From a virus, in the UHGV virus genome UHGV-1333064: 40,697 nucleotides of DNA; one strand, written 5' to 3'. A program made the translations under genes and the position numbers. Position 1 is the stretch's first letter; each line of letters starts with the position of its first letter. A model generated the notes under the pieces. That model saw only the letters and a program-made list of their open reading frames with translations, searched no databases and was not told where the DNA came from. This document shows, in pieces, positions 176 through 36,151 of this stretch.

Positions 176-724
176 TCAGCTAGCTGGAAACTTTTTATAC
201 AGAGTTGAGAGCCCTACTCCATACGTTTTTGATACGCTTTGTCGTGATTCACCGGTTGCCATCCGCTCCCCCATTTCCCTCCATTGCTCATCCGTGAACT
301 TAGGCCTGCGACCACCAACTCGCCCTTTTGCCCTGGCTACGGCCAGCCCTGCTAAGGTACGTTCGCTATTAAGATCAGATTCATATTGTGCTGCGGAAAG
401 GATGTTACGAAAGTTATAGCGGCCGCTGGCTGTTTTGAGATCCACGCCATCGGTAATACTGCGGAAGTTGATACCCTTTTCCTGTAACTGCTGGAACATC
501 AACAGCGCATGCAGAACGTTGCGGCCTATCCTGTCCAGCTTCCAGACCACCAGTTCATCCCCCGGCTGCATAGTGGCGATCAGCCGTTTTAGAACCGGCC
601 GATTCGATTTCCTCCCGCTGGCATGCTCTTCAAAAATTTTCTCACAACCCGCTGACTTGAGCGCCGTTAGTTGCAATTCAGTGTCCTGGTGGTTTGTTGA
701 TACTCGGGCATAACCGTAAATCAT
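176..724 (-). CDS. serine recombinase, DNA invertase (Hin/Gin/Cin/Pin family)
   Basis: Track ORF 176..883, trimmed to the internal Met of MIYGYARVSTNHQ (ATG 722-724) with AGGAG 7 nt upstream. Resolvase-type N-terminal catalytic Ser motif (YARVST), VWKLDRIGR, and a C-terminal HTH (LSTLYKK), as in DNA invertases. Confidence 0.9.
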   Translation of the reverse strand: MIYGYARVSTNHQDTELQLTALKSAGCEKIFEEHASGRKSNRPVLKRLIATMQPGDELVVWKLDRIGRNVLHALLMFQQLQEKGINFRSITDGVDLKTASGRYNFRNILSAAQYESDLNSERTLAGLAVARAKGRVGGRRPKFTDEQWREMGERMATGESRQSVSKTYGVGLSTLYKKFPAS

Positions 725-728
725 GGGA

Positions 729-755
729 TTTCTCCTGTTATGAAAACAGGAGAAA
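729..755 (-). promoter_or_regulatory. perfect 11-bp palindrome with 5-nt loop that contains the invertase Shine-Dalgarno
   Basis: TTTCTCCTGTT (729-739) / AACAGGAGAAA (745-755), loop ATGAA. On the minus-strand mRNA the 3' arm carries AGGAG, 7 nt before the invertase ATG. Confidence 0.35.
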
Positions 756-776
756 CGGCGAAGCATCACCAGATTT

Positions 777-1211
777 TTGATGGTTATAAAAAAGGTTGGT
801 TTGGGAGAAGGTTCGGCATTACCCGTTGGCGTGCCTGTTCCGTGGCCTTCCGCCACTCCGCCAACAGGCTGGCTGAAATGCAACGGTGCCGCTTTTTCTG
901 CTGAAGAATACCCGGAACTGGCGAAGGCTTATCCGACAAATAAAGTGCCTGATTTACGCGGTGAATTTATTCGTGGCTGGGATGATGGTCGAGGGATAGA
1001 TAGTGGCCGTGCATTGCTATCTGCGCAGGGAGGAGCAATCCAATCTCATACGCATTTATTAGCTGTCCGAGTTAGCGGGGCAACATCAGCTACCAGCGCA
1101 GATGATGTATTAAAAACCGGAGGCACCTCCAGTAGGGAAACTAATGCGACGGGTGGGACTGAAACAAGGCCGCGCAACATTGCATTTAACTACATTGTAA
1201 GGGCAGCATGA
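777..1211 (+). CDS. alternative tail-fibre C-terminal segment (silent orientation; expressed only after inversion)
   Basis: Track ORF begins at TTG. Protein has a tail-collar-like motif (PTGWLKCNGAAFSAEEYPELAKAY ... VPDLRGEFIRGWD). The frame is open across crossover site 784-809 and both junctions encode GLGE, so inversion would fuse it in frame to the constant N-terminus of the fibre gene. Confidence 0.55.
   Translation: MMVIKKVGLGEGSALPVGVPVPWPSATPPTGWLKCNGAAFSAEEYPELAKAYPTNKVPDLRGEFIRGWDDGRGIDSGRALLSAQGGAIQSHTHLLAVRVSGATSATSADDVLKTGGTSSRETNATGGTETRPRNIAFNYIVRAA
784..809. repeat. invertase crossover site, hix/gix-like (copy next to the invertase gene)
   Basis: TTATAAAAAAGG TT GGTTTGGGAGAA: 26 bp with 12-bp half-sites around a 2-bp core. 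The reverse complement of the right half (TTCTCCCAAACC) closely matches the left half of the site at 2581-2606, in inverted orientation. Same architecture as gix/hix/cix sites. Confidence 0.6.
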
Positions 1212-1819
1212 TGACCACAAAAAAAATCACTTTGGATGAAAACGGTTTTGCCACTGAGGCTGGATTTATTACCGTTTACAACTACAATGGCGAAACGCGT
1301 GAATATATTGGTTCATCCGTTGAATATCTGCCGGTTGGCGCTGGCGTTCCAGCTAATTCCTGCGTTGATGCGCCGGGCAGCAAAAAAGAAGGTTTCGCAA
1401 TCTGCCGCAAGGCTGATTTAACCAGTTGGGAATACGTTGCTGACCATCGTGGCGAAACTGTTTACAACACTGAAAACGGCGATGAAATCACCATCACCGA
1501 AATTGGCGAATATCCTGAAAATACAACCACTATCGCCCCGTTAACTCCATACGATGAATGGGATGGTGAGAAATGGGTGACAGATACTGAGGCACAGCAT
1601 AGCGCCGCAGTAGAAGCGGCAGAAGCACAGCGCCAGTCACTGATTGATGCTGCAATGGCTTCGATCAGTCTGATTCAGCTGAAATTACAGGCCGGGCGGA
1701 AGCTGACGCAGGCAGAAACCACCCGGCTTAACGCCGTGCTTGATTACATTGACGCGGTGACGGCAACAGATACGAGCACCGCGCCGGATGTCATCTGGCC
1801 TGAACTGCCGGAGGCGTAG
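1208..1819 (+). CDS. tail fibre assembly protein (Tfa-like), partner of the alternative fibre segment
   Basis: 203-aa ORF directly downstream of and overlapping (ATGA) the alternative fibre segment. C-terminal region resembles phage Tfa chaperones and the C-terminus of the convergent Tfa at 1791..2234 (both end ...APD(V/I)(I/E)WP..P..). Confidence 0.7.
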   Translation: MMTTKKITLDENGFATEAGFITVYNYNGETREYIGSSVEYLPVGAGVPANSCVDAPGSKKEGFAICRKADLTSWEYVADHRGETVYNTENGDEITITEIGEYPENTTTIAPLTPYDEWDGEKWVTDTEAQHSAAVEAAEAQRQSLIDAAMASISLIQLKLQAGRKLTQAETTRLNAVLDYIDAVTATDTSTAPDVIWPELPEA

Positions 1820-2234
1820 GCCATTCAATATCTGGAGCACTGGAGGTATCAACCAGTTCCAGTGCGTCCAGATAATCCAGCCACAAATTATATTGCGCCA
1901 GTTCCTCACCTTTCAGGCGACCAATCGCTGCTTTACCAGGCCATTGCTTACTGTATATGTATTCGTTGACCTGATTAATCAATTGCTGCTTTTCCAGTTC
2001 GGCTGCGGCAATTTGTTCCTCATGAGTTGGCGGTGGAATTTCCCCCCAGGTGGGAAGGCCATCATCACCCGCGATGCGTACTTTCCCTTGCAACGTTCTG
2101 TCTTCAATAAATTCCAGGTAAGTGTCATATGTCACTTCGACAATATCAGCAAGTTCCCATCCGGCCTGTTCATATTTCGCCACATCATTTTTAGCGAAAA
2201 AACTATTATTTGAGGCGCTATAAACCATTTCCAT
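1791..2234 (-). CDS. tail fibre assembly protein (Tfa-like), currently in expressed orientation
   Basis: 147-aa ORF immediately downstream of the fibre gene on the minus strand; Tfa-like C-terminus (LVDTSSAPDIEWPTPP). Confidence 0.75.
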   Translation of the reverse strand: MEMVYSASNNSFFAKNDVAKYEQAGWELADIVEVTYDTYLEFIEDRTLQGKVRIAGDDGLPTWGEIPPPTHEEQIAAAELEKQQLINQVNEYIYSKQWPGKAAIGRLKGEELAQYNLWLDYLDALELVDTSSAPDIEWPTPPAVQAR

Positions 2235-2235
2235 A

Positions 2236-2880
2236 TTAATACCCTACTGCAATATAAAAAACTGATTCACCAGCGTCCTGAGAACCTACCCCCGGAACGC
2301 CAGACCAGGCTTTGTTAATGAATGCAAAACCGGTATTACTCAGATCAGATGCTCTGTACATCGGGCTGAACATCCAGTAGTTGGCTCCATATGTTTGTCC
2401 GAAAACAATGCCATAGCACTGATTTGTAAATGGCGTAGAAAATAATTTTCCACCAGTACCAGCGATAGTCCCGAATCGCATCTGGAACCCATTCGGGAAA
2501 TTAATTCCGCCTGCCGGTGAAGACCAGTAAGACATATCAGGTATCTGATTATCTCCTGTGCCCACATCCCTTTTCGCCGCTTCTCCTAAACCAAGGTTTG
2601 TGGTAATCGCTGTCGCCAGCTTTGCCACCAGTCCATCAACGTCACCATCATCGAGCGCGTCCAGTTCGGCGTTCGCGATAAACTGCCCCAGTACAGCCGC
2701 CATCGTCGACGGTTGGCGCAGCGCTTTACTGACCTGTGCGCTGGATGCTTTACCCGAGGAGAATCCTTTCTTCAGTGCGGTTAGCGTCTCCCATTCCTCC
2801 TGCGAGGTAACATTTGCATTAGCATCTGTCGCAAACGCTTTAAAATCATTAGTTCCAGCCATTAAAGTAATCTCCCCCAT
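2236..2880 (-). CDS. tail fibre protein (constant N-terminus of about 95 aa joined to the current variable C-terminus)
   Basis: 214-aa ORF after the I-like gene. Crossover site 2581-2606 lies inside it and encodes ...AITTNLGLGE...; downstream sequence is Gly-rich, typical of a fibre tip. Confidence 0.75.
   Translation of the reverse strand: MGEITLMAGTNDFKAFATDANANVTSQEEWETLTALKKGFSSGKASSAQVSKALRQPSTMAAVLGQFIANAELDALDDGDVDGLVAKLATAITTNLGLGEAAKRDVGTGDNQIPDMSYWSSPAGGINFPNGFQMRFGTIAGTGGKLFSTPFTNQCYGIVFGQTYGANYWMFSPMYRASDLSNTGFAFINKAWSGVPGVGSQDAGESVFYIAVGY
2581..2606. repeat. invertase crossover site, hix/gix-like (copy inside the tail-fibre gene)
   Basis: TTCTCCTAAACC AA GGTTTGTGGTAA; resembles the invertase-family consensus (TTCTC..AAACC..GGTTT) and is inverted relative to the 784-809 copy. 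Confidence 0.6.
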
Positions 2881-3578
2881 GCGCCGTCATCAAAACCGGC
2901 GATGTATTCGTTATCCATGTCAAATCCAAAGAATTTTGTTCCTTCGGACGGTGTTTCGACCGAGGGTGTTTCAACGCCGCCAGCCCATACACCAGCAGCT
3001 TTAACGGTGAGATAACCCTGTTTGATAGCGGCTATCAGTTCGAGTGACACATCAGAAATATCAGTCTCGGGAAAAACCCAGACCGATATCGTCATGTCCT
3101 GGTTATCGACGATCTGCATCTTCAGTCCAGAGCCTGCGGTAGCAGCGTCAAGGATGGGAGGCAGAGAGTCGTTCCGACCATCCCAGTTGTTGATAGCGAT
3201 TTTCGCTTTCAGAATGATGCGGTACGTCTCATCACTCAGCGTCGTATAGCCAGAATCAGGATCATATGGCCCTTGCCAGATGCCCTGGTCATATCCGAGC
3301 CCGTCAGTGTCCCAGCTGAAATAAACGCCGCTAATTGGCTGGCTGACTATACGACTACGCCCAATCCACAGGCCGAGGATATCGAGTTGCACGCCAACCG
3401 CCGTATCGATATCGAAGGCTGTTACAAGCCCTGACATAGTGCTGGACACATCAATCAGCGGGCGGGTGCTCAGATCTATATGGTCAAAAAAGAGTGGCTT
3501 GGTAGCGTGGTAGTTAGTGATCAGTTCGGTGTATTTGCTCATGAGGTCACCGTGATAGTGACGTGACTCGCAACGCAT
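2862..3578 (-). CDS. tail/baseplate protein, P2 gpI / Mu gp48-like
   Basis: 238-aa ORF between the J-like gene and the fibre gene, overlapping both; position and size fit the I-like baseplate wedge partner. Assignment is by synteny and recalled similarity only. Confidence 0.55.
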   Translation of the reverse strand: MRCESRHYHGDLMSKYTELITNYHATKPLFFDHIDLSTRPLIDVSSTMSGLVTAFDIDTAVGVQLDILGLWIGRSRIVSQPISGVYFSWDTDGLGYDQGIWQGPYDPDSGYTTLSDETYRIILKAKIAINNWDGRNDSLPPILDAATAGSGLKMQIVDNQDMTISVWVFPETDISDVSLELIAAIKQGYLTVKAAGVWAGGVETPSVETPSEGTKFFGFDMDNEYIAGFDDGAWGRLL

Positions 3579-4738
3579 GACGCAGATTCGTCATAAGCAA
3601 TATCGATATTTCCGCTTGCGACTGAGTCAGAGGATTTGCCGATGAGCAGCTCCTGAATGTCGTAATAGCGAGCACTGCCTCCGCTTACCACGCCAAGGTT
3701 TGCCGGGGAATAAATACGACTCAGCAGAACGTCGTCGCCAATTGTCAGGCCATTAATATAGCCGGCAACAGCCTGTTTGATCTGCTCGCCGATTTGAGAG
3801 GTATACCCGGTAAAAACTTTCAGGGTAATGGCTACGAAAATTGGCACATCGGTAGAGCGTGAAAAACTGATGACGTGAGGATTACCGTAAGTATCCGGCA
3901 CCGTGACAGAAGTTGTCCCGTAGGTTGCCGTTCCCTGTCCTTTATTCCCCCTGATGGTCTGGGCTATTTCGGTAACATCCCCACCATCGACGATGGCGGA
4001 AATTGAGTGCGGCGGCAGCCCGTTGCTGTCTGTTGTTCCTGTGTCGTTCTCATACAACTTGTGACGTGTCACGCCAGCAACGTTAGCTATTGCACCGTCG
4101 ACACCTTCAAACGGTGTGATCGATGGTAGCGCGACGCTTTGCCCCTGCCGAATGCGCAGCTCTGCGTCGGTTTCGGCTGGTGAACCGACAGTAGCCGAAG
4201 CTGGGTTGGTTACCGACACCCAGCCGCGAGTCGGTGTGTTAATGGTGGTAATAGTCCCGGCCATCGCCGCAACCGAACCGCTATTCGCACATGTGGCCGT
4301 CACCAGCACAGTACCATCAACGCCGATCGCTACACTTGCGGGAAAATTCCAGATAATGCCGTTTTTATCCCGTGCGGAGCCATTCGTGATAGTCGTGCCT
4401 GCCGTACCGGTTAACAGAAGGTCAGCAGTAGAGTTTGTCGCTACTTTTCGCGTGATCCCGTTAATTTTCACATTGCTGCTAAGCGCTGCGGCCTGCGCTG
4501 TCGTCGGTGAAAAAGAGTTGTAGATCCCGATAGCGGTGTTGTTAGCGTCATGCACCGCAAGAGCCACCAGCGCGACCATCTGCCCGTCTTTGCTGTCTGG
4601 TTCGAGGTAGGCATCACTACCGTAAATCTGCCTGAAATAGCTGGTCAGTGTATCTAGGATTGTCTGGTAATCAGGCGCACTAATCCCCTGGGCGGTTACC
4701 GTTGCCGATAGCCCCAGCGTGTCGAGGTTCAAAGCCAT
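3539..4738 (-). CDS. baseplate J-like protein (P2 gpJ / Mu gp47 family)
   Basis: 399-aa ORF directly downstream of the W-like gene in a W-J-I-fibre order. Confidence 0.65.
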   Translation of the reverse strand: MALNLDTLGLSATVTAQGISAPDYQTILDTLTSYFRQIYGSDAYLEPDSKDGQMVALVALAVHDANNTAIGIYNSFSPTTAQAAALSSNVKINGITRKVATNSTADLLLTGTAGTTITNGSARDKNGIIWNFPASVAIGVDGTVLVTATCANSGSVAAMAGTITTINTPTRGWVSVTNPASATVGSPAETDAELRIRQGQSVALPSITPFEGVDGAIANVAGVTRHKLYENDTGTTDSNGLPPHSISAIVDGGDVTEIAQTIRGNKGQGTATYGTTSVTVPDTYGNPHVISFSRSTDVPIFVAITLKVFTGYTSQIGEQIKQAVAGYINGLTIGDDVLLSRIYSPANLGVVSGGSARYYDIQELLIGKSSDSVASGNIDIAYDESASCVASHVTITVTS

Positions 4739-5092
4739 TTATGCCTCGCTTGTTACAGTCGTCTGGCCGTAGATTGTGTCAATGGAGGAAGTGAAGGTGA
4801 CGCGACGGCTGGTGCCGTCATAATTGGTATCGAAGGAAAGAATCGACAGAACGCCCGGTGTATCCTGTATGCGTTCGCGTATAGCCAGGATGTAGACATC
4901 TGATCGCTGCTTCCCAAGCACTGACTGAACATACGGCGTGCCTTCCGTCAGATCGAGAAACCACTGACCGCGCCACAGCTCGAAACGGGTTTTTACGGCC
5001 TGGGCGACACATTCCGGACTGTCGATAAGGAAAGTATCGTCACCCTGGCCGAAAGTGTAATCGCCTTCAGTATCTTCGCGACGGTATCGCAT
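4739..5092 (-). CDS. baseplate protein, GPW/gp25-like
   Basis: 117-aa ORF, ATGA-coupled to the upstream spike-like gene; size and position typical of gpW/gp25 baseplate wedge proteins. Confidence 0.6.
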   Translation of the reverse strand: MRYRREDTEGDYTFGQGDDTFLIDSPECVAQAVKTRFELWRGQWFLDLTEGTPYVQSVLGKQRSDVYILAIRERIQDTPGVLSILSFDTNYDGTSRRVTFTSSIDTIYGQTTVTSEA

Positions 5093-5832
5093 TATTGCGG
5101 CCCTCCGGTAGTTCCCCCGCCAGTCTGTACTCCGCCATGTTTATGCGTGGCGACACTGATACCAGAAGCTGTTACGTCATTCGTTACCGTCACCGGCCCA
5201 AGCATCGTCGCAGTACCGCCGCTTTCTCCCATTCCCTGAGACAGGTTACCGTTAATCGTTACGTTGCCGTTCAGCGTGATAGTCGGGGATGTGATTGTCG
5301 TTCCACCCTCAGCCGTAGCCGTAAGCTTGCCCGGCGTTTTAACGGTGATGTTATGCCCTGCTGCGACCTCTACGAACGCCGAGCCATCATCGGTTCGCAG
5401 CTGCGCGGCGCTGGTACTGATACCGCTGATTTTCTGCGCTTGCGACTGCGGGCCAACGATGGCGAACGCATCAGATAAGTCATGCTGGCGCGGGTCGACG
5501 GTCTCCTGAACGCCGCCGCTCTGCCACCAGAAATCGATGCAACGGTCGGCAAAGATCAGCAGGCACTCGTCGCCTTCTTTTACCGGAAAGGTCAGCGTGC
5601 AACCGCCGCCGCGCGGGAAGATAACCGGCACATCCACCAGCGGTTTTAATTCGGTGGAGCCATCGCCAACAATACCGCGAAGCGCTACCTCTACTGTGCA
5701 GGTAACAGTGTCAGGATCGAACGACTGAATGATGCCGGGCATCGCTACGCGCATCTGGGTAGACACCGAATCGGCAATGGCCTGCGCGGTCTGCTGCTCA
5801 CCGCCGATCTGTGATTGAGTTGGAATTGGCAT
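5092..5832 (-). CDS. baseplate central spike / assembly protein V-like (Mu gp45-like)
   Basis: 246-aa ORF with a Gly/Thr-rich C-terminal repeat region (GGTTITSPTITLNGNVTINGN...HKHGG) typical of spike proteins; ATG 5830-5832. Confidence 0.6.
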   Translation of the reverse strand: MPIPTQSQIGGEQQTAQAIADSVSTQMRVAMPGIIQSFDPDTVTCTVEVALRGIVGDGSTELKPLVDVPVIFPRGGGCTLTFPVKEGDECLLIFADRCIDFWWQSGGVQETVDPRQHDLSDAFAIVGPQSQAQKISGISTSAAQLRTDDGSAFVEVAAGHNITVKTPGKLTATAEGGTTITSPTITLNGNVTINGNLSQGMGESGGTATMLGPVTVTNDVTASGISVATHKHGGVQTGGGTTGGPQ

Positions 5833-5843
5833 AAAAACCCCAT

Positions 5844-5867
5844 AAAAAAACCAGCCGAAGCTGGTTT
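5844..5867 (-). terminator. intrinsic terminator-like hairpin on the minus strand, just upstream of the spike gene
   Basis: Minus-strand RNA reads CCAGC-UUCG-GCUGG followed by UUUUUUU (UUCG tetraloop, 5-bp GC-rich stem extendable by A-U pairs). It sits between the AT-rich insertion and the spike ATG. Confidence 0.4.
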
Positions 5868-6043
5868 GGTATCAATTACTAAGCTACATCAGTGTGAAGT
5901 AAGGCTTTTCCGCTGCAATGGCACACATTCACAAGGTGTATTAGGATATGTTTGCAACAAGTAAGCATTAAAAATCAATTTCAGCCATGAAGCCGCCATA
6001 GAGTGGACCTGCACCATCGCATTCTTGACTACAGGAGTAACAA

Positions 6044-6334
6044 ATGGGATTTAGATTTCGCAAAAGAATCCGGATTGCGCCCGGACTCGCGATCAACATT
6101 AGTAAAAGCGGAGTAAGCACTTCAATTGGTGGTAAAGGTTCCACCATTAACATCGGGAAAAAAGGCGTAAAGATGACAAATGGCCTTCCCGGCACGGGGC
6201 TGTCGCATACCACTAACCTTTACTCTCCCGGGAAATCGACAGAAAAAAAACAACTTACTCATAAGCAAAAAATAATTAGAAACATCCTGTTCGTAATTAT
6301 TGTGTTTATTATAATTAAAGCTCAATATTTTTGA
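6044..6334 (+). CDS. DUF4236-like small protein with C-terminal transmembrane anchor
   Basis: 96-aa ORF on the strand opposite the tail operon, AGGAG 8 nt before the ATG. N-terminus MGFRFRKRIRIAPG..NISKSGVSTSIGGKG recalls DUF4236; C-terminal hydrophobic ILFVIIVFIII. Coding DNA is visibly AT-rich. Confidence 0.6.
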   Translation: MGFRFRKRIRIAPGLAINISKSGVSTSIGGKGSTINIGKKGVKMTNGLPGTGLSHTTNLYSPGKSTEKKQLTHKQKIIRNILFVIIVFIIIKAQYF

Positions 6335-6339
6335 CGCAT

Positions 6340-6366
6340 GCCCGCCTATCTGGCGGGCTATTTTAC
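6340..6366 (+). terminator. intrinsic terminator after the DUF4236 gene
   Basis: GCCCGCC-TATCT-GGCGGGC followed by TATTTTACTTTT, beginning 6 nt after the stop codon; the hairpin overlaps the 3' end of the convergent lipoprotein gene. Confidence 0.5.
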
Positions 6367-7248
6367 TTTTCGGCAGTCGTATGTTGCATACTGACGCGGC
6401 GAATCCATGCTGGCTTGCAACCACTGTGCGTTGAGAATGGCTTTGCCGTTTCGATTGATGTACTCAAGACCAACCCAGCGGCCAGGCTGGTCAGTATCAA
6501 CCATCCACTCCATTTTGACGTTATCCGGCTCACGGTTTGTACTGCCACCTGTACCAATTGGAGTAATTTTTTGCGTCTCTGGTTTCACGCCATTAATTCT
6601 GGCCCAACCATCAGCAGACGACAGGTCTATCGTATAAGGCCCACAAGTAGTCTTGTAGTTCACACCAAGTTTTTCGTTGCTGTGTGCTTTTTTGCTTTTT
6701 TCGTAATCGGCCTTCGCTACATCATTCATCTTTTGATAGATAGCAGGCTGCTGCAAAGAAAAATCATTTAGCCTCTTAACAAAAACCTCACGTGAAACCT
6801 CTGCAAGGCCCATTGGTTTTCTGTCAATGGTGTAGTCATCATATATCTTTGATATTACAGTTAATGATGAAAGATTTTTAGCTAAGTTATTTTCAAAGTT
6901 AAGGTAATTTAGCGGAGAATTATCTCTTACATCAATAGCCCCAACGCCACCGGTACCGTACTCATGATATGCAGCATAAAAAACAGGGATCATCTCTGGC
7001 TTTTTATTAATCGCCTTAATCAACCCTTCGGGACCGCAAGATTCCCCACTCCAGTCGATAAGCGACTTACCTTTCGATTGCCATGTTTGGCAATCGTCTG
7101 CCGATAAGATTAAAATTGGCTGCCACCCCGGGCGTTTTTTGTAACTAACATTCTTATCAGAATTGAAGCCTGCATTTGCGCATCCAGAAACGAGCAGCAC
7201 CGACAGGAAAAGCACACTGTATCGAAGTCCATTCATGTTCTTATACAC
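6358..7248 (-). CDS. lipoprotein of unknown function, inserted in the baseplate gene cluster
   Basis: Track ORF starts at GTG 7246-7248, preceded by GGAGGAGG; an ATG lies 4 codons in. Signal peptide with lipobox (VLFLSVLLVSGC). Stop of the upstream hub-like gene abuts the start. Coding DNA is AT-rich relative to flanking tail genes. Confidence 0.65.
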   Translation of the reverse strand: MYKNMNGLRYSVLFLSVLLVSGCANAGFNSDKNVSYKKRPGWQPILILSADDCQTWQSKGKSLIDWSGESCGPEGLIKAINKKPEMIPVFYAAYHEYGTGGVGAIDVRDNSPLNYLNFENNLAKNLSSLTVISKIYDDYTIDRKPMGLAEVSREVFVKRLNDFSLQQPAIYQKMNDVAKADYEKSKKAHSNEKLGVNYKTTCGPYTIDLSSADGWARINGVKPETQKITPIGTGGSTNREPDNVKMEWMVDTDQPGRWVGLEYINRNGKAILNAQWLQASMDSPRQYATYDCRKVK

Positions 7249-8316
7249 TCAACCTCCTCCTGAACGAGCTATAGTCGCCTGGCTAATCAGATCACGAGCA
7301 CCACGCGCAAAACACATTAAATCCATGTACCACGCCTGACCTCTAGTGTCGCCAGTATAGTCGATAGCTTTGACGATATAAACGCCATCCGTCGCAATGC
7401 TGGCTGCCTGTGACGTCGTGCCGGTCAGCACGCGGTTGCCGTTCTCTTCTGTTTCGGTGATACGCCCGGGCGACTGTGCTATTTCGCTATTGCCGAGCGT
7501 GGCGCGGTACACCGAAGCCTGATCGAGCTGGATAAGGCCATTGATGCGGATGTTCGGGTTTATCAGGCACCGCACGTTTACGCCGCCGCCCATCGTCTGC
7601 TGCGGCATACCGATCAGGCCAGTATCTGCATTCAACACAATGGCTTCGTGAATATATTTATCCTCCGGCACCATCTGGACCTGACCATCCACCAGCTGCC
7701 ATGTCGCTTTGCACTGCGCAGCAATATTATCCATCACGTTACGGGTGGATGAGTAAATCGCGCGGCCACGAGGAAAGACGGTATCTGGAAAGTCTCCGGT
7801 AATGCCCTGCGTTACGCCGAACGCGTTGAAATCCTGCATAGTCGCCCGGTGCAGGTCCGCAACGGTATAACCAGCGGCAAGCGTGGTGATGGTGGTCGCA
7901 TAGAGAAACGCTTCGTGATCACCAATGGCCTGAATCAACACCCAGGAATCCGTAATGTTGTCCTTCCCGGTGACGGTGAAGCGAATATCACCGTCAAATA
8001 TCAGGCCGTAGTTCTGACCGTTCACCTGCCCTACCTGGTCTGGTGAAATCTCCAGGGCGACACCAACCTGGCTCGCATCAACATCCGGCGCTATACCGTC
8101 ATACCCGGCAATGATGCGAATTTTGGCAAACTCCTGCCCAAGTATCTTGTTCGTGGTATCGGTCGAAAGGTTGTAAATTTTCACGTTCGCCACGCGCGGC
8201 CAGCGTGTGTCTGCCCACTCGATCTGGAACGTGACCTTAAAGTTAGACAGGGAAACGCCCTGCCCGTTCTGGTCCAACAGTTGCAGCTCAAAATGGCGCA
8301 TCCAGTTAAGAGACAT
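7249..8316 (-). CDS. baseplate hub-like tail protein (Mu gp44 / P-like)
   Basis: 355-aa ORF between the tape-measure-proximal genes and the spike; assignment by synteny with Mu/SfV-type tail modules. Confidence 0.45.
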   Translation of the reverse strand: MSLNWMRHFELQLLDQNGQGVSLSNFKVTFQIEWADTRWPRVANVKIYNLSTDTTNKILGQEFAKIRIIAGYDGIAPDVDASQVGVALEISPDQVGQVNGQNYGLIFDGDIRFTVTGKDNITDSWVLIQAIGDHEAFLYATTITTLAAGYTVADLHRATMQDFNAFGVTQGITGDFPDTVFPRGRAIYSSTRNVMDNIAAQCKATWQLVDGQVQMVPEDKYIHEAIVLNADTGLIGMPQQTMGGGVNVRCLINPNIRINGLIQLDQASVYRATLGNSEIAQSPGRITETEENGNRVLTGTTSQAASIATDGVYIVKAIDYTGDTRGQAWYMDLMCFARGARDLISQATIARSGGG

Positions 8317-8318
8317 TT

Positions 8319-8624
8319 CTACTCCTGTACGAAAATGAGGTGGCTGTATGTGCCGAGGTTGGTTTTGGTGGGCTCGTCTGGTGCGCCCTTATCGGTCGCC
8401 ACCACCAGCGCGCCATCAATGCCAAGCTGTGGATATTGTCGTAAAAGGTTTACGCCGGTCAGTAGAGGTACGCCAGAGAGAAGCGCGGCACCGCCGCTAT
8501 CCATCACGTCCATAATCCAGCCAGCCGCATCACGCCAGATGATCCTGAGTGTATACGTGGTATTGCCCAGCAAAACGCGGAACTGCTGATTGTCAGGAGA
8601 AAGCGGTATTTCGTTAAACTGCAT
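8319..8624 (-). CDS. tail protein, hypothetical
   Basis: 101-aa ORF tightly packed (2-nt gaps) between tail genes on the same strand. Confidence 0.4.
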   Translation of the reverse strand: MQFNEIPLSPDNQQFRVLLGNTTYTLRIIWRDAAGWIMDVMDSGGAALLSGVPLLTGVNLLRQYPQLGIDGALVVATDKGAPDEPTKTNLGTYSHLIFVQE

Positions 8625-8625
8625 A

Positions 8626-9228
8626 TCATCCCCCGAATGCTGATGTAACGCTTCCGCCCAGCTGGCTCAGCAAGGATTCGTTTGGCGGTGTAGTGGATTT
8701 CATCCCGGAATTCTGCACCGCCGATGTGCTGACGCCATCCTGCATATCTGATTTATCTGCAACGCTAACGCTCTGCGTCTGCGACATGATCACTTCACGC
8801 AGGGTAAGCGTGCAGTTCAGCACGTTCTCGCTGGTTTTATCCGTTGTCACCTCGATGGCTCGCACCAGCATATTGCTGTAAACCCGCTTTCCGGTCACTA
8901 CATCGAACGGCACCCGAGAGGACTGGAGATCCAGTAGTTGCTGATAGGTCTCTTTCGGGCTAAGTCCGGCGCTGAGGCCGATTGACGATGTATCAATGAA
9001 GTCCAGCAACGAACCGCCACCAGCGAAGCCGCATTCCATTGTGACTTCGCTGGGGCGCTTATACGCATGATCGGCGATGAAGCCCGAAGCGCTATTCGTT
9101 GTTGGCTTCTCCACCGGGTGCTCAGTAATTTCGAGCGCATCAGAATGCTTTTCGGAGACGACCACGCTGGGGATCAGCAGGCCAATTCGCCGGGATTGCT
9201 GGCGAAAAATCGCTGATAAAATATCCAT
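8626..9228 (-). CDS. tail protein, hypothetical (tape-measure-proximal)
   Basis: 200-aa ORF whose start abuts the tape-measure stop (ATGA overlap at 9228). Confidence 0.4.
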   Translation of the reverse strand: MDILSAIFRQQSRRIGLLIPSVVVSEKHSDALEITEHPVEKPTTNSASGFIADHAYKRPSEVTMECGFAGGGSLLDFIDTSSIGLSAGLSPKETYQQLLDLQSSRVPFDVVTGKRVYSNMLVRAIEVTTDKTSENVLNCTLTLREVIMSQTQSVSVADKSDMQDGVSTSAVQNSGMKSTTPPNESLLSQLGGSVTSAFGG

Positions 9229-11243
9229 TATCTCGGTCCTGCGGGGAGTTGCTGGGTTAACTGTGAATTCACGCCCTTTTGACGATCAACAGTCAAACGG
9301 GCAGCCTCGCGCGGATCGGAAACGCCGTGGATGTTAATATTCGTTTCCTGCTGAATCACCGGGGCGCTGGTGGGCATGTTGCTCATTACTTTCGGAATGT
9401 AGTTACGCGTTTCCTGCGGCATTAACCCCATGCCATAGCGCTTAACATTCCCGATCCCCCAGTTATATGATGCCAGTGCTTTGCTAAGGTCTCCGCCGTT
9501 CTGCCGCAACAGCTGGCTGAGGTACTTAGCTGCGGCCTGAGCTGACTTTTGCGGGTCGAATACATCGTTTCCGCGAAGGCCCATGTCGCGCGCCGTACCA
9601 TCCATAAACTGAAACAGACCTTTAGCGCCAGCGCCTGAAACGGCGAACTGATTACCGCCAGATTCCGTTATGGCCACACTGCGCAATAACCCCTCCGGAA
9701 GCCGGTAGAGCTGTTCCAGGTTGGTAAGCATCGGCTGCATCCATCCCAGCAGTTCAGAGCCTGCTTTGGTTGGCTGTGGCCGCTTAACTGACTGGCCGAG
9801 CTGTTCAGGCTCATCATCACCGAACCAGCCGCGCACCGTTCGGCCCACGCTGCGAGGATCGAATCCCCAGTGCTCTTTAATCCAGTCGGCGGTACCGTTG
9901 GCGCTGTCTGTTACCATCGGCATCGCTGACGGATTTTCGCTGCCCTGATTTAGCAGCTGTTTGCCTATACTAGCGGCCTGCGCCCAGTTTCCATCTTTTA
10001 TGGCATTCAGCAAATCAGCGATCATGTTCAGCATCTTGCCGAACTCACCCATTTGCGAAATGAAGTTGCTAAAATCCCACTTTAGGGACCATGACTTGGG
10101 GTCAATACCGAGCAACTTAGCCAGCGCTTTTGTCAGGTCCGTAACAGTCTTTTTCAGGTCACCAATCATTTTGACGGCCTGATCAATTTCAGTCTTCCAT
10201 TTCCCCCAGTCAATCAGGCTTTTGCCACCTTCTTTCCACGTCTGGTAATCATCCAAGAGCAGACCAAGTGCAATAATAAGCGTCGTTATCATGCCCAAGG
10301 GTGATGACATGAAAGCGGTATTTAGCAGCCGCCATGCAACCAACAGCCCACTGAACAATGCGATAAGCTGCTGCGTGGCTGGGTTCAGCTTTTTGAACCA
10401 GGCGATCACACCCTCAACAGCTTGCCCAGTTCGCCATAACACGCGGGTAATCGCGTCACCTGCCCAGAGAATTCCTTTGATGATCTTCGTGATGACCGCT
10501 TCAATCTTCGGCCAGTTGTCGAGTATCTGCCTGCGGAAGTTATCAATACTGCCAGCAAGGCCACCAGCTAGGTTAGAGCCAATCTTGTCTTTCGCCTGTC
10601 CAAGCGTCATCGTCAGATTACGCATGGAGGTCATGAAAATATTGGACTGTTTAGCCGCTGACTCAGCATTAAAACCAATACGCTTTGCCGTCAACGCGTA
10701 CTCAGAACTGAGCTGCCCCATCCCTCTGCGCATCGCCATCAGCGTGTTTTCATCGATGCCAAGCATCTGCGCGTATTGTTTCGCGCGGTAATACGGCATG
10801 TTGTTGAGCTTTTGCCCAACGCCAGTAAAGATGGCCGCAGTATCACGCATCTTTCCGCTGGCATCGCGGGTCTGTACGCCCAGACGGTTCAGGAACCCTT
10901 CCGCCCCCGGATTGCTACGCATGAAACCAGCCAACCCTTCAAGAGAGGACATGGCCGACTCGGCGCTGGCACCGGTTTGCGATGCGGCATAGCCCAGCGC
11001 TTTGATGCCCTGGACGCTGGCCCCCGTCCGCTGGGATGCCCAGTAAATTTTATCCAGACCATTCGCGATCTGGGTGGTAAATCCGACAATGCTAAGCGCT
11101 GAGCCTTTCACCACCGCGCCGACCTTCAGAACGTTCGCGGTAACGCCTTTCAGCACGGCTTCAAACTTATTAGCGCCAGCCTGATCGATATCGAATCCCA
11201 GCGAAACAAGGAAATCTTTAATCGTATCTGCGTTACCGCTCAT
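9228..11243 (-). CDS. tail tape measure protein with C-terminal lytic transglycosylase (SLT) domain
   Basis: 671-aa ORF with a hydrophobic/alpha-helical central region; C-terminal ...VAITESGGNQFAVSGAGAKGLFQFMDGTARDMGL...YNWGIGN matches the SLT catalytic region (E-S...GLMQ-like). ATG 11241-11243. Confidence 0.8.
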   Translation of the reverse strand: MSGNADTIKDFLVSLGFDIDQAGANKFEAVLKGVTANVLKVGAVVKGSALSIVGFTTQIANGLDKIYWASQRTGASVQGIKALGYAASQTGASAESAMSSLEGLAGFMRSNPGAEGFLNRLGVQTRDASGKMRDTAAIFTGVGQKLNNMPYYRAKQYAQMLGIDENTLMAMRRGMGQLSSEYALTAKRIGFNAESAAKQSNIFMTSMRNLTMTLGQAKDKIGSNLAGGLAGSIDNFRRQILDNWPKIEAVITKIIKGILWAGDAITRVLWRTGQAVEGVIAWFKKLNPATQQLIALFSGLLVAWRLLNTAFMSSPLGMITTLIIALGLLLDDYQTWKEGGKSLIDWGKWKTEIDQAVKMIGDLKKTVTDLTKALAKLLGIDPKSWSLKWDFSNFISQMGEFGKMLNMIADLLNAIKDGNWAQAASIGKQLLNQGSENPSAMPMVTDSANGTADWIKEHWGFDPRSVGRTVRGWFGDDEPEQLGQSVKRPQPTKAGSELLGWMQPMLTNLEQLYRLPEGLLRSVAITESGGNQFAVSGAGAKGLFQFMDGTARDMGLRGNDVFDPQKSAQAAAKYLSQLLRQNGGDLSKALASYNWGIGNVKRYGMGLMPQETRNYIPKVMSNMPTSAPVIQQETNINIHGVSDPREAARLTVDRQKGVNSQLTQQLPAGPR

Positions 11244-20566: not shown

Positions 20567-22011
20567 CAGGCTTGCCTCCCGAGCAATTCCCAAATATCCA
20601 TTGTTGTATCGGTCGGCGCGAACGCCATTATGAAAGCGTCGGCAATGTTAGGTGAGGGGATATCGCGCTTAGCCAAATCTTTCTTGCTTTCAACCATAAC
20701 CCTACCGTTACGATCAAAGTCTCGGTGCGGGGTCGTCAGCTCAAGCTTTAGTTTCTCCAGGTGCGGGCACGATGAATCGATACTTATCAACTCATCAACA
20801 GGATATTCCTCTCCATTTTTCACCGCGTTGAACGTATTACGAAAGCGATCAGCTACCAGCCACCATGCCTGGGCTTTCAGATTGGCAAAGAAGTCTTTAT
20901 TCGGAATGCCGTTATATTCAGAATCTGGCTCGTTCACACCAGCGCCAGCATTGAAGCGTTGATAATTAACTGGTCGTGAATAAGGATTTTCACGTCGTCT
21001 GTCTTCGTTAATTTCCGAGAATTTAGCACCAGCAGAAGCGCCAACACCAATGGAGTCATAAACGATATCAGCACTTCTCTCTGTGGCTGCCTGATATGCC
21101 CGCTGGCAGCTTTTAAGAAGCTCGTCTTCTTTTGCCTTCCATTCATCAGCCCAATACACAACGGAGCCATGACGATAAACATTGGAGCACTTATCCGCAC
21201 CGCTATCGGCAACGTCGAAGCCTATTCGCTTTCGTCCGTTTGGCTCAAAACCAAGCACCTTATGGGCATCTATTGCAGCCTCAATCCACGAAAGTTTAAT
21301 AATTGCCGCGTCATCATCAGATTCGGGAACCCCCATATAAACGTGGTCAAACCCCTCCGGATCACGACGCTTTGCAGCCGAGATAACCTTAAGCATGGTG
21401 TCTGAGAGGAATGGGTTTTCGTCGTAATTGATTTTTCTCACCAACGTATCTTCTGGTGGATCAACAACGAAATTACGCCATACAAAGTCAGTCACCAGAC
21501 CAGGGTTAAAAATAAACCAGCATTCAGATCCGCTTTTACGAATGGTTGGTTCCAGTATCTTCCACTGGTATTCCGTTAGTGCATGGGCTTCTTCAAGCCA
21601 CAAAACGCTGATACCTTCCAGGGATTTAATTTCTTCGATATTGCGCCATAAACCGTAAAACACGAATTCTGAGCCAGTGACCCGGTTGATAATTTTATTA
21701 TTCAGAATTCGGAAGCGATGCCGCAGCCCAAACCGTTCAATCTGTATTTTGAGCAGGGTATAAACCGACTCTTCGATTTTGTTCTGAATTTGACGTGCGC
21801 AACAGAAACGCAGGTTGTATTTATTTGCCAGAAAGACAGCAAACCCAGCAGCATCCCATGACTTTGACGATGAGCGCCCACCAAAAAGTACTTTATTTCG
21901 AGCCTGTGTCGTCCAGAAGTTCCTTAGAGCCGGATTCAGGGTCGGTTTGGATGTCAGAGTAGAAGTCATTAAGGTCACGATCTCCATTACCGTCATCAAC
22001 GCCAGCATCAC
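20566..22011 (-). CDS. terminase large subunit
   Basis: ATPase Walker A (VLFGGRSSSKS) near the N-terminus plus a C-terminal nuclease-type region. Track ORF starts at GTG; the true start may be an internal Met (for example MTSTL at 21969). Overlaps the TerS gene 3' end. Confidence 0.85.
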   Translation of the reverse strand: MMLALMTVMEIVTLMTSTLTSKPTLNPALRNFWTTQARNKVLFGGRSSSKSWDAAGFAVFLANKYNLRFCCARQIQNKIEESVYTLLKIQIERFGLRHRFRILNNKIINRVTGSEFVFYGLWRNIEEIKSLEGISVLWLEEAHALTEYQWKILEPTIRKSGSECWFIFNPGLVTDFVWRNFVVDPPEDTLVRKINYDENPFLSDTMLKVISAAKRRDPEGFDHVYMGVPESDDDAAIIKLSWIEAAIDAHKVLGFEPNGRKRIGFDVADSGADKCSNVYRHGSVVYWADEWKAKEDELLKSCQRAYQAATERSADIVYDSIGVGASAGAKFSEINEDRRRENPYSRPVNYQRFNAGAGVNEPDSEYNGIPNKDFFANLKAQAWWLVADRFRNTFNAVKNGEEYPVDELISIDSSCPHLEKLKLELTTPHRDFDRNGRVMVESKKDLAKRDIPSPNIADAFIMAFAPTDTTMDIWELLGRQA

Positions 22012-25693: not shown

Positions 25694-25947
25694 AATAGAG
25701 GGTAGTGCGTTGAGCTTTTGCTCTTATGGTCCTGGTAGGTATTTGGTGTGTGGTGACCGGTGCTGTGTTTTCCGGCATGTAAATGAACTACCCGTCGTCG
25801 CCATGGTGAGCCTTTACCTCACCATCTAGCTGATAAGTTAGCGCATCAGCCTGCGCATTCACCACAACGATAATTGCACTGCGCCTGTTTCGGTTAGCGT
25901 AACGGGATTAACCGGTCACCCCAATGCAATTATCTGTTGTGCAGATA

Positions 25948-25977
25948 CAAAAAAGCCCCGAGCTATTAACTCAGGGC
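25948..25977 (-). terminator. intrinsic terminator about 105 nt downstream of the Q gene
   Basis: Minus-strand RNA GCCCUGAG-UUAAUAG-CUCGGGGC (8-bp stem with one G-U pair) followed by UUUUUU. Confidence 0.5.
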
Positions 25978-26082
25978 CATCGAATGAATGCACTACTCCA
26001 TCATTGATTTCAGATTAAACAAAAATCGCCACTTTGTAAAGTGTAGTTTTCTAGATAAATCCTATTTCATAGAAAACATTCA

Positions 26083-26847
26083 CTATCGCGTGACTTTGTT
26101 CAACATCTGGTTTGCGTACTCTTCCTGCTTGATGCACTCACCTACCAGACTTTCGAAAAAATCCTTGTAAGACCTGCGCCACGTGGTTTCAGGTATATCC
26201 ATCACCGTTACGCAGATGTATTTACGGACGCTATCAGGTAGCAATCTGGCATAACCACGCCCATTGCAGCGCGTACAGGTTTTATATGCAGGAACGCCGC
26301 GCTGTAGAATAGTTTTCTCTTTGTCTAATACTGTTCCTTTGCCATTGCACTGGCATGCGTTGGTCAGAGCACCCTTCCCTTTGCATTTGTGGCAAAGCAC
26401 CTTAACCATCTCTCTTTTTTCGCTAAGGTGTGGCTGTCCGATATGCTTCATCGTCATTACTTCAGCTTCGACAAACTTATTTCCATTGCAGCAGTCGCAC
26501 GTTCTGGTACTGGCGGCGCTCCGGGAGTAATCAGCAAAGGCGAAAGTTGCGAGAACTTGCATTACCTTTGGCTTAACATCGCTCTCAAGCTTGCGTAAGG
26601 CGGCAACCTTATCGCAGTGCTCAATTGCATATTTGGTCAGCAGGTCAATTGCTCGCTCGCGATCGTAATCGCTGATATCCATCTTACCGAGGAATGCACT
26701 GAACCCGAGATCAGCCCGGCTCTGTGTCATTCCGATCGCCGCCATAATGTCAGTGCCGGTTAATGAGTCAGATGCGGTTGCACGTGGAGCGTCGCTAATC
26801 ATCGTTGACTTCGCGAAGTGGTATTTCACTGTGTTTTCGAGATTCAT
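26083..26847 (-). CDS. late-gene antitermination protein Q-like
   Basis: 254-aa ORF immediately upstream of the lysis cassette, with Cys-rich zinc-binding motifs (CDCCNGNK, CHKCKGKG, CQCNGKG, CTRCNGRG). Confidence 0.65.
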   Translation of the reverse strand: MNLENTVKYHFAKSTMISDAPRATASDSLTGTDIMAAIGMTQSRADLGFSAFLGKMDISDYDRERAIDLLTKYAIEHCDKVAALRKLESDVKPKVMQVLATFAFADYSRSAASTRTCDCCNGNKFVEAEVMTMKHIGQPHLSEKREMVKVLCHKCKGKGALTNACQCNGKGTVLDKEKTILQRGVPAYKTCTRCNGRGYARLLPDSVRKYICVTVMDIPETTWRRSYKDFFESLVGECIKQEEYANQMLNKVTR

Positions 26848-35349: not shown

Positions 35350-35649
35350 TTTACCCCATCGAAACGAAACATCGACAGCTGAGCGAAGTTAGCCAGCGGC
35401 GGACAGCAAGTCGCCTGCTCATTAAGAATTCAGTCAAGCAGCAAATCACCCGGAGCGCTCCTGGCAAATTGAAATGGCGCCCAATGGGATTGAGGCAGGT
35501 GTGTAACGCGTGGCGGGTATAGCACACGAAGAGGACTCCGCACCGGAATGGTTTGCTGCTCAGTTCCCGAACATCGGGGAAGCTTTACCAGCAGCTCTTT
35601 GCGAGGGGCTGACGGCAAATCTACTCCACTTATTTAAAAGAGACGGTAT

Positions 35650-35823
35650 ATGGATAATCAGGATAATGAGTTAAGAAAGGTTGTTCAGGAACTTGCTGAT
35701 GAAGAAGGCATCAGCTTTTCCGATGCCCTAGATGTTTCGATTAAAGCGCTGCGTTATGAGGTAGAGCGCAGAAAATCGTTTAACGGTGAAGCTGCTTGTG
35801 ATGGCTCTGCAATTACTTCTTAG
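35650..35823 (+). CDS. small acidic hypothetical ORF (57 aa), not in the supplied ORF track
   Basis: ATG 35650-35652 to TAG 35821-35823, read by eye; its 3' end overlaps the convergent 92-aa gene by 11 nt. Weak Shine-Dalgarno, so coding status is uncertain. Confidence 0.25.
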   Translation: MDNQDNELRKVVQELADEEGISFSDALDVSIKALRYEVERRKSFNGEAACDGSAITS

Positions 35824-36091
35824 CCAAGTACCAAGAGGTGTCTGCGGCTTCGGAAACCAGTACGTAATAGCTTTGCTTTACACTACTAGCTATACCTCTG
35901 ACTTCCTCTCTAACGTTATATGCAGTTGATGTTTTTACGGTTGTATATTCAGCTGTTGGGAGGTTAAACCAAGTGCCATTACCATCCTGTATCTCACGCG
36001 AATAACCCTTTGCTTTCATCTTTTCATGAAGATTTTCATAGTCTTCAGAATCAGCGCCGCGCAACTCAACTCGAACAATATATCTTGCCAT
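35813..36091 (-). CDS. hypothetical protein (92 aa) at the rexAB-equivalent position
   Basis: Track ORF 35813..36232 trimmed to MARYIVRVELRGADSEDYENLHEKMKAKGY... (ATG 36089-36091) with AGGAA 7 nt upstream. Opposite strand to both cI and the early-left operon. Confidence 0.5.
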   Translation of the reverse strand: MARYIVRVELRGADSEDYENLHEKMKAKGYSREIQDGNGTWFNLPTAEYTTVKTSTAYNVREEVRGIASSVKQSYYVLVSEAADTSWYLAKK

Positions 36092-36106
36092 AAGAAGATT
36101 CCTATA

Positions 36107-36151
36107 TTGACTGTGGAATGAGCAACATATCAGTTTCCTTTGACTGTGGAA
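36107..36151. repeat. two direct 12-bp repeats TTGACTGTGGAA upstream of the 92-aa gene
   Basis: Copies at 36107-36118 and 36140-36151 (33-bp period), 16 nt upstream of the 92-aa gene start; each contains TTGACT. Confidence 0.3.

Follow-up and report, generated by a model that had tools for sequence, protein, structure and literature searches.

A probable accessory slot between the hub and spike genes of a Brunovirus-like temperate myophage, occupied by a two-domain lipoprotein and a DUF4236 membrane protein

Introduction

HK97 gp15 and P22 SieA block genome delivery by incoming tails at the inner membrane, and the lipoproteins Cor and Llp act on the receptor or on a component of the incoming tail tip, while other phage-encoded envelope proteins, such as Bor and Lom of lambda, have host-serving roles. 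In lambdoid late transcription, Q-modified RNA polymerase reads through terminators at which unmodified polymerase stops. The present work concerns the DNA between the hub and spike genes of the tail (positions 5833-7248) in the UHGV virus genome UHGV-1333064, a stretch of 40,697 nucleotides (nt) that is called the window here and to which, at its full length, all coordinates refer. This DNA holds two open reading frames (ORFs), one of 296 amino acids (aa) at 6358-7248 on the minus strand and one of 96 aa at 6044-6334 on the plus strand. The original prediction, made from the sequence alone, saw in it an AT-rich accessory insertion, with a lipoprotein and a convergent DUF4236-like membrane protein that might serve superinfection exclusion.

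The exclusion protein gp15 of HK97, which is small and located in the inner membrane, is the product of a moron in the tail operon (Cumby et al., 2012; PMC3594210). The DUF4236 protein resembles it as a small membrane protein from an AT-rich add-on in a Q-dependent tail operon, close to tape-measure and tail-tip genes, and a DUF4236 homologue of a siphophage (P0135) lies in the same position as gp15, between chaperone and tape measure. However, gp15 belongs to the YebO family, whereas the DUF4236 protein matches only PF14020 and has no sequence relation to it; moreover, the membrane helix is C-terminal here and the gene lies on the opposite strand. The lipoprotein can be compared with Cor (phi80/N15/T1) and Llp (T5), phage lipoproteins of the outer membrane or periplasm whose genes are found among tail and receptor-binding genes, but it is far larger (296 aa, two domains), and most relatives use a soluble, non-lipidated form.

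The slot as a whole is reminiscent of defence hotspots such as those of P2/P4 and phi80 tai (PMC11364771; PMC13586616), with which it shares a fixed backbone position, conserved flanks and variable cargo including defence genes, and, as in the phi80-type hotspot, opposite-strand genes interrupt a Q late operon. In phi80, an opposite-strand gene inside the Q late operon is expressed in the lysogen and its expression is lowered when Q is made (PMC11364771). In contrast to these hotspots, the slot described here is found in another lineage and position, the hub-spike junction of Brunovirus-like myophages; an always-present exported gene precedes the free cargo, and a terminator stands directly before an essential structural gene. 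In the tail module itself, the tube initiator is followed by plug, hub and spike, and these by the sheath initiator and two wedge proteins, which is the order of the minimal baseplate of the Pam3/Mu type. In Pam3 the genes of hub and spike have consecutive numbers, gp19 and gp20, and the solved baseplate has six components and no other (PMC9942802), whereas 1.4 kb of accessory DNA is intercalated here. The slot belongs to a known kind, the moron or defence hotspot, and is built of uncharacterised protein families.

Results

Organization of the slot

In a temperate myophage that is SEN34/Brunovirus-like and regulated by a lambdoid Q, this region is, with high probability, the accessory ('moron') slot. 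Its features and the two genes that flank it are as follows (GC, guanine-plus-cytosine content; AF2, AlphaFold2; SD, Shine-Dalgarno sequence).

7249-8316, minus strand: hub gene, TGA stop at 7249-7251
6358-7248, minus strand: gene of the 296-aa exported lipoprotein, the long variant of the post-hub exported protein (ORF, start and SD, homologues, AF2)
7180-7248, minus strand: signal peptide with lipobox LVSGC, Cys23, residue +2 Ala (read from the translation)
6658-7179, minus strand: N-terminal helical 'H' domain, residues 24-197, GC 0.40, a rare mobile module
6358-6657, minus strand: C-terminal phrog_3443 domain, residues 198-296, eight-stranded beta-barrel, GC 0.49
6340-6368, plus strand: predicted intrinsic terminator of the DUF4236 gene, overlapping the lipoprotein stop codon (pattern scan, folding)
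6044-6334, plus strand: gene of the 96-aa DUF4236 protein, opposite to the late operon (Pfam, AF2, family alignment)
5868-6043, plus strand: 5' region of the DUF4236 gene, with SD AGGAG at 6033-6037; TTGACTACAGGAG is conserved in Klebsiella cassettes
5841-5867, minus strand: predicted slot-closing terminator, a CCAGC-UUCG-GCUGG hairpin followed by T7 (pattern scan, folding)
5092-5832, minus strand: spike gene, ATG at 5832

Four further ORFs were judged spurious and have no family support: the antisense ORFs 6122-6424 and 6331-6771 overlap supported genes or the leader, and the small ORFs 5815-5964 and 5889-6017 overlap supported genes or the untranslated leader.

The comparison with relatives is based on 99 loci that contain both hub and spike, taken from one genome per species, IMG/VR and E. 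coli genomes. The gap between the two genes ranges from 402 to 2473 bp, and its order was shown to be fixed: an exported-protein gene after the hub, a free cargo position, and an intrinsic terminator that leaves only a few bases to the start of the spike. An exported protein follows the hub in 99/99 loci, as a barrel alone in 81, as a helical plus a barrel domain in 13 and as an 'X'-domain lipoprotein in five; the figure of 13 was obtained by blast, and L012, an X-domain lipoprotein with a helical domain, is additional on other evidence. In the minimal loci L010, L023, L101 and L103 the barrel gene is alone in the slot. The expectation that relatives pass straight from hub to spike holds for Pam3 (PMC9942802), but not for the close relatives, in which a gene for an exported protein always intervenes; the barrel core is missing from Pam3 but present in 94 of the 99 close relatives.

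The cargo differs from locus to locus. A DUF4236 gene on the opposite strand is the cargo of 24 loci; others carry Phd/Doc, secreted proteins of 128 aa and of 106-131 aa, a gene pair of which one member has a HEPN-like motif, or Bro-N/KilA-like proteins (the latter two recognised by eye). A homologue of PD-Lambda-1 (T5orf172, E 3e-82) lies in the gap of L017 from Pantoea dispersa (494-1723), and a PDC-S42 candidate (E 2e-36) in that of L013 from Pantoea ananatis. On this sequence comparison the slot is an accessory hotspot for exchangeable genes. A 79-aa DUF4282 protein was also seen in the cargo position of L127 (4387-4626). PADLOC 2.0 gave no match for either protein of the window at E up to 0.1, NCBIfam and Rfam returned nothing for the region 5833-7248, and a literature search on the hub-spike hotspot found nothing.

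The base composition of the slot differs from that of its surroundings: the GC of 5833-7248 is 0.429, whereas the window as a whole has 0.526, the hub 0.543 and the spike 0.580, and the lowest 500-bp values of the whole window fall in this region, about 3 standard deviations under the mean. The GC check proposed with the original prediction thus bore out accessory DNA of foreign composition, AT-richer than its neighbours at 0.54-0.58. Across the loci, mean GC is 0.454 for short barrel genes, 0.412 for cargo and 0.534 for the hub. The traits expected of a moron were found here as follows: base composition unlike the neighbours, in this genome and across loci; presence in some relatives and not in others (DUF4236 in 24/99, the helical domain in 13/99); and what appears, from pattern and folding energy, to be its own terminator.

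The lipoprotein

The GTG start at 7248 abuts the hub TGA, with GGAGGAGG 4 nt upstream, and it is supported by the fact that some homologues have this GTG as their sole possible start. The residues L-V-S-G-C at 19-23, which follow a basic and then a hydrophobic stretch, match the pattern [LVI][ASTVI][GAS]C of a putative lipobox; lipobox and signal peptide were called by reading the sequence, not by a predictor. The 296-aa lipoprotein with its LVSGC lipobox and strong SD, abutting the hub gene, was accordingly found as described in the original prediction.

The AF2 model (predicted local distance difference test, pLDDT, 76) has a helical N-domain at about residues 35-185 (pLDDT 85-97) and an eight-stranded barrel. 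The H domain has a conserved Cys53/Cys71 pair and the motifs FYAAYHEYG and DRxxMGL, and the barrel domain a conserved Cys202/Cys292 pair. Residues 198-296 match phrog_3443 (E 1.4e-34, profile positions 21-114 of 115), a family whose members have about 115 aa, so that the membership covers the C-terminal third of the lipoprotein only. In related E. coli prophages and Citrobacter phage Omnitron the post-hub gene encodes a protein of 111-126 aa with a cleavable signal peptide (e.g. AFA/DQQCG), the same barrel and the same two cysteines. A barrel gene after the hub is also found in SEN34 (Brunovirus), Klebsiella phage Mulock, vB_EcoM-683R1, Klebsiella prophages and two further distant members. The barrel family comprises 647 clusters, and all organism-named ones come from Enterobacterales.

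The long architecture is rare: 19 clusters at 43-95% identity were found among 5.8 billion proteins, and a profile of the helical domain retrieved only 23 representatives among 1.84 billion, in which this domain stands nearly always behind a lipobox and is fused to other C-terminal domains. The original prediction had taken the lipoprotein as foreign to the cluster; this does not hold for the barrel (phrog_3443), which follows the hub in 94/99 loci, while the H domain and the lipobox are rare additions, seen in this combination in the 19 clusters. The lipobox is kept in most long-form homologues, and its cysteine is changed to Gly or Tyr in P0003 and P0009, which implies that lipid anchoring is not essential to the family. 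Gly/Tyr variants of the lipobox are also listed for L030, L031 and L033 (for example LLLSGGASAG), and a dispensable lipid anchor in the long forms agrees with the soluble short forms.

Fold comparison of the lipoprotein with Foldseek against the Protein Data Bank (PDB) gave no significant match, profile searches against PDB sequences were empty, and a fold search with the helical domain gave generic or no matches. There was likewise no Pfam or PHROG match to Cor or Llp. A lysozyme or transglycosylase inhibitor (MliC/PliC, PliG, Ivy, LprI-like), which the SLT domain of the tape measure had brought to mind, found no support from sequence or fold and was rejected as anything more than speculation.

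Some further observations concern this family. The post-hub exported proteins (L012, L036, L043, L067, L106; P0019-P0039) appear as shuffled modules, namely the helical H domain, the phrog_3443 barrel and an X/Y domain with the motifs IDFEHAARLAKMH and FSHWAGMARVY; a Z domain, seen by eye only, resembles a separate secreted cargo protein. One helical-domain protein lies in a P4-like satellite context, and H-plus-Y proteins occur in the P4-like satellite L107. In L002 (NZ_CP059283.1, 2859-3749), RefSeq has only the last 96 codons of the lipoprotein, as a pseudogene 'missing N-terminus', while the 296-aa ORF is intact; this call likely stems from the reference family being the short barrel form.

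The DUF4236 protein

The 96-aa protein matches Pfam PF14020 (DUF4236) over residues 3-55 (E 1.8e-20, 73.6 bits against a gathering cut-off of 27), and its AF2 model (pLDDT 80) consists of a six-strand beta-meander (6-60), a linker and a C-terminal membrane helix (73-95), which confirms a DUF4236-like protein with a C-terminal transmembrane helix. A Pfam scan returned DUF4236 only, without homology to YebO/gp15. The fold search gave generic or no matches, and the literature contained one incidental mention of DUF4236.

A homologue search yielded 192 DUF4236 proteins, mostly of 91-108 aa. In the family plan, the N-terminal domain of about 55 residues is conserved, the linker after it varies, and the chain ends in a hydrophobic helix, which is kept as a feature across 61 homologues; in Vibrio and Photobacterium, some members carry an additional SH3 domain and are encoded on the chromosome. 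Gene neighbourhoods were examined for six small homologues, five of which sit in tail gene clusters, of four kinds. In Klebsiella the place is the same hub-spike slot; in lambda-like prophages of Pseudomonas syringae the gene lies between gpK and the tail-tip protein J, in Leclercia between tape measure and gpM on the opposite strand, and in the siphophage (P0135) between tail chaperone and tape measure, which is the position of gp15 in HK97.

Two variable segments around a conserved core

Breakpoints were determined by blastn against L003, L028, L001, L004 and L010, and they divide the slot into three parts, none of which is assigned to a strand.

5856-6372: variable segment 1, the DUF4236 cassette, with hairpin and 5' region ahead of the gene and the terminator after it (blastn)
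6360-6522: conserved core, the 3' half of the barrel gene, about 160 bp, common to all relatives (blastn)
~6523-7280: variable segment 2, extending from the final ~10 codons of the hub through signal peptide and H domain into the 5' half of the barrel (blastn)

Compared with L003, which has a short barrel and DUF4236, homology of 97% extends over 4700-6518 and resumes at 7281. Compared with L028, which has the long lipoprotein without DUF4236, it covers 6373-8700 and 4700-5855. Around segment 1, the similarity to L028, L001 and L004 is lost at 5850-5855 and returns at 6360-6373; in segment 2, that to L003, L001 and L004 is interrupted, and the amino-acid identity of the hub over residues 342-355 is 0.28-0.39. 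These breakpoints replace the single insertion of the original prediction by two independent mosaic segments around a conserved core. The core at 6360-6522 likely acts as a homology anchor between the two variable segments.

The last 10-20 codons of the hub (window 7249-7300) vary with the downstream cassette. Just before this variable end, hub residues 307-331 (ASIATDGVYIVKAIDYTGDTRGQAWYMDLMC) have nucleotides that are almost invariant across genera, and this stretch is possibly a recombination anchor. The cassettes appear, from their sequences, to be exchanged by recombination at the hub motif, in the 3' half of the barrel and at the T-run with the 5' end of the spike.

Lipoprotein and DUF4236 protein had been predicted as a pair; they do not form an obligate one, each being found without the other among the 99 loci. 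In 5 loci the long form has no DUF4236 gene beside it, and in 16 a DUF4236 gene accompanies the short barrel. Since the two genes assort independently, an obligate gene pair was rejected. DUF4236 is present in 8/13 long-form and 16/81 short-form loci (Fisher p 0.003, on dereplicated loci with kinship ignored).

Terminators, Q and a promoter-like motif

A T-rich tail follows the plus-strand hairpin at 6340-6358 (-16.7 kcal/mol, z -3.0), which has no T-run on the minus strand. The minus-strand hairpin at 5867-5848 is followed by a T7 run (-11.9 kcal/mol, z -1.9) that ends about 8 nt before the spike ATG. Both bracketing hairpins of the original prediction are therefore present, with the correction that the one at 5848-5867 lies on the late-operon strand; the DUF4236 gene is, as had been proposed, an opposite-strand unit with its own terminator, and only 24 of the 99 related loci carry it.

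In 95/99 loci, 6-8 bp pair perfectly into a hairpin, at least 6 T come after it, and the whole element ends 11-19 nt before the spike ATG. Its stems are of at least four types, which differ on both arms (CCAGC/GCTGG, CCCGC/GCGGG, GCCGC/GCGGC and CCTCGC/GCGAGG). Every one of the 24 DUF4236 loci has the CCAGC/GCTGG type, as does a single further locus; therefore, this hairpin travels with the cassette, while a terminator at the pre-spike spot is universal.

A lambdoid antiterminator Q lies elsewhere in the window.

26083-26847, minus strand: lambdoid Q antiterminator (Pfam PF03589, E 1.6e-43), upstream of the holin and the late operon

By analogy, the slot terminator together with Q is the classic moron arrangement, as this layout is known from tail-operon morons (PMC3594210).

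A promoter scan brought up a weak candidate in the hub that might be an internal promoter of the exported gene, the number of such sites in the scan being not above chance.

7354-7382, minus strand: promoter-like TTTATA-17-TATACT in the 3' end of the hub

The motif is nearly invariant among the 99 loci, with a synonymous identity of 0.77-0.85 against a mean of 0.68. The stretch also encodes a highly conserved peptide, and the -10 element is changed in Mulock and the Klebsiella relatives.

Other features of the window

Apart from the slot, the tail gene order is colinear with gp17-gp24 of Pam3. The remaining genes of this module are all on the minus strand.

9228-11243, minus strand: tape measure with transglycosylase (SLT) domain
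8626-9228, minus strand: Dit-like tube initiator
8319-8624, minus strand: plug, Pam3-gp18
4739-5092, minus strand: sheath initiator
3539-4738, minus strand: baseplate J
2862-3578, minus strand: DUF2612 wedge protein

An invertible tail-fibre switch occupies 176-2880.

176-883, minus strand: serine invertase of the Gin/Cin type (Resolvase, E 8e-39)
777-1211, plus strand: alternative fibre tip with Collar domain
1208-1819, plus strand: chaperone, which together with the alternative fibre tip faces the active chaperone and the 214-aa ORF
1791-2234, minus strand: active chaperone
2236-2880, minus strand: 214-aa ORF in tail-fibre position, without Pfam match

Further GC minima (0.42-0.44) were seen at 35551-36150 near the immunity region, at 21401-21900 inside the head region and at 25851-26500 just upstream of the holin, beside Q; they may be further mosaic joints or morons.

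Discussion

Compared with what the original prediction suggested, the hotspot is of a more ordinary kind and shows more structure in its details. A lysogen-expressed protective role is plausible, since relatives carry PD-Lambda-1, PDC-S42 and Phd/Doc at the same place. From the signal peptide, the lipobox, the cysteine pairs and the membrane helix we infer that both products are located in the envelope, where they would act in the lysogen; superinfection exclusion is our best guess for their function, a tentative one that draws on sequence features and on analogy. When this function is blended with the anatomy and the accessory nature of the slot into one reading, we consider its chances to be about even.

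According to this proposal, Q-modified late transcription would read through the slot terminator and run antisense across the DUF4236 gene, which would for that reason be expressed mainly in the lysogen, while Q-independent transcripts begun in the slot would stop before the spike. In the inner membrane, the DUF4236 protein could then block genome delivery by incoming tails, and the lipoprotein could act in the periplasm or at the outer membrane against the receptor or a component of the incoming tail tip. The occurrence of small DUF4236 genes beside tape-measure or tail-tip genes in four types of tail module speaks for exclusion. Several points weigh on the other side. The survey of DUF4236 contexts comprises six proteins, and the scan yielded no convincing promoter for either gene, nor any promoter-like site on the plus strand upstream of DUF4236. 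In the Klebsiella relatives, no T-run comes after the hairpin ahead of the spike. Comparison of sequences and folds brought up no resemblance to known exclusion proteins (Cor, Llp), lysozyme inhibitors or defence families, and the exported gene, translationally coupled to the hub and present in every relative, fits a function in the phage cycle equally well.

This last point leads to the main alternative, namely that the exported protein (barrel and long form) is a late factor of the lytic cycle and only DUF4236 true cargo, the protein serving for instance receptor masking or envelope conditioning that spares the progeny from debris, as does T5 Llp, or helping lysis and egress. An exported protein stands after the hub in 99/99 loci, its gene abuts or overlaps the hub stop on the late strand, the barrel family is confined to this tail type in all contexts sampled, and the promoter scan yielded no demonstrated promoter. 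We nevertheless regard a lytic-cycle role as rather unlikely, because the homologous Pam3 baseplate has no such gene (PMC9942802), the exported gene is consistently 8 GC points under the hub, and the closing terminator makes sense only for Q-independent transcripts; moreover, the shuffling of domains (barrel, helical plus barrel, X, helical plus X) would be unusual for a core function. Conserved position in the baseplate cluster and coupling to the hub might also suggest a structural component of the virion. The conservation in all relatives that this would entail is partly observed, but the Sec signal peptide or lipobox and the cysteine pair in each domain, which is typical of periplasmic proteins, argue for an exported rather than a structural protein, the complete Pam3 baseplate of six proteins has no counterpart (PMC9942802), and the composition is foreign to the backbone, so that a structural role is extremely improbable.

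Both envelope proteins might instead serve the host in ways unrelated to phages, for instance by conferring immunity to type VI effectors or to bacteriocins that act in the periplasm, by making it resistant to serum or stress, or by mediating adhesion. A moron slot encodes these exported or membrane-bound products, and morons are known for such roles (PMC3594210); however, both families are tied to tail-tip neighbourhoods and not to toxin loci, and the alternative cargo that can be named is anti-phage or toxin-antitoxin, which makes a host-serving role improbable in our estimation. The layout of convergent neighbours, one on the late strand and one opposing, recalls tai/ati of phi80 (PMC11364771) and would also be compatible with a single two-gene system, either defence plus counter-defence as in Tai/Ati or a toxin with its partner; DUF4236 is indeed commoner with the long form (8/13) than with the short one (16/81), again with kinship ignored. 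Against this stand the 5 long-form loci without DUF4236 and the 16 in which DUF4236 accompanies the short form, the location of the genes in separately recombining segments, and DUF4236 genes standing alone in lambda-like tail clusters without a barrel gene. To judge from these sequences, independent assortment largely refutes a two-gene system, to which we attach only a very small probability.

The exclusion proposal can be extended further, in a form that is speculative and on the whole unlikely: small tail-anchored DUF4236 proteins might constitute a widespread, unrecognised exclusion family that travels with tape-measure and tail-tip genes and blocks delivery at the inner membrane, and the post-hub modules (barrel, H, X/Y, Z) might be a combinatorial periplasmic repertoire directed against tail-tip parts, e.g. 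the transglycosylase of the tape measure. If this is true, the slot would amount to an entry-blocking locus that is complete in itself and linked to the tail type it excludes.

Prophages of the group concerned are present in about 1% of complete E. coli genomes and also in Salmonella, Klebsiella, Citrobacter, Serratia and Pantoea. Should the proteins prove inert or act in the lytic cycle, the finding would reduce to ordinary phage mosaicism. If our reading holds, it would reveal an accessory hotspot, not described so far, among enterobacterial prophages of a common group, and a natural example of how a terminator placed before an essential gene insulates lysogen-expressed cargo in a Q operon. 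It would also provide a first functional lead both for DUF4236, a Pfam family with almost no literature, and for an exported phage protein family of 647 clusters.

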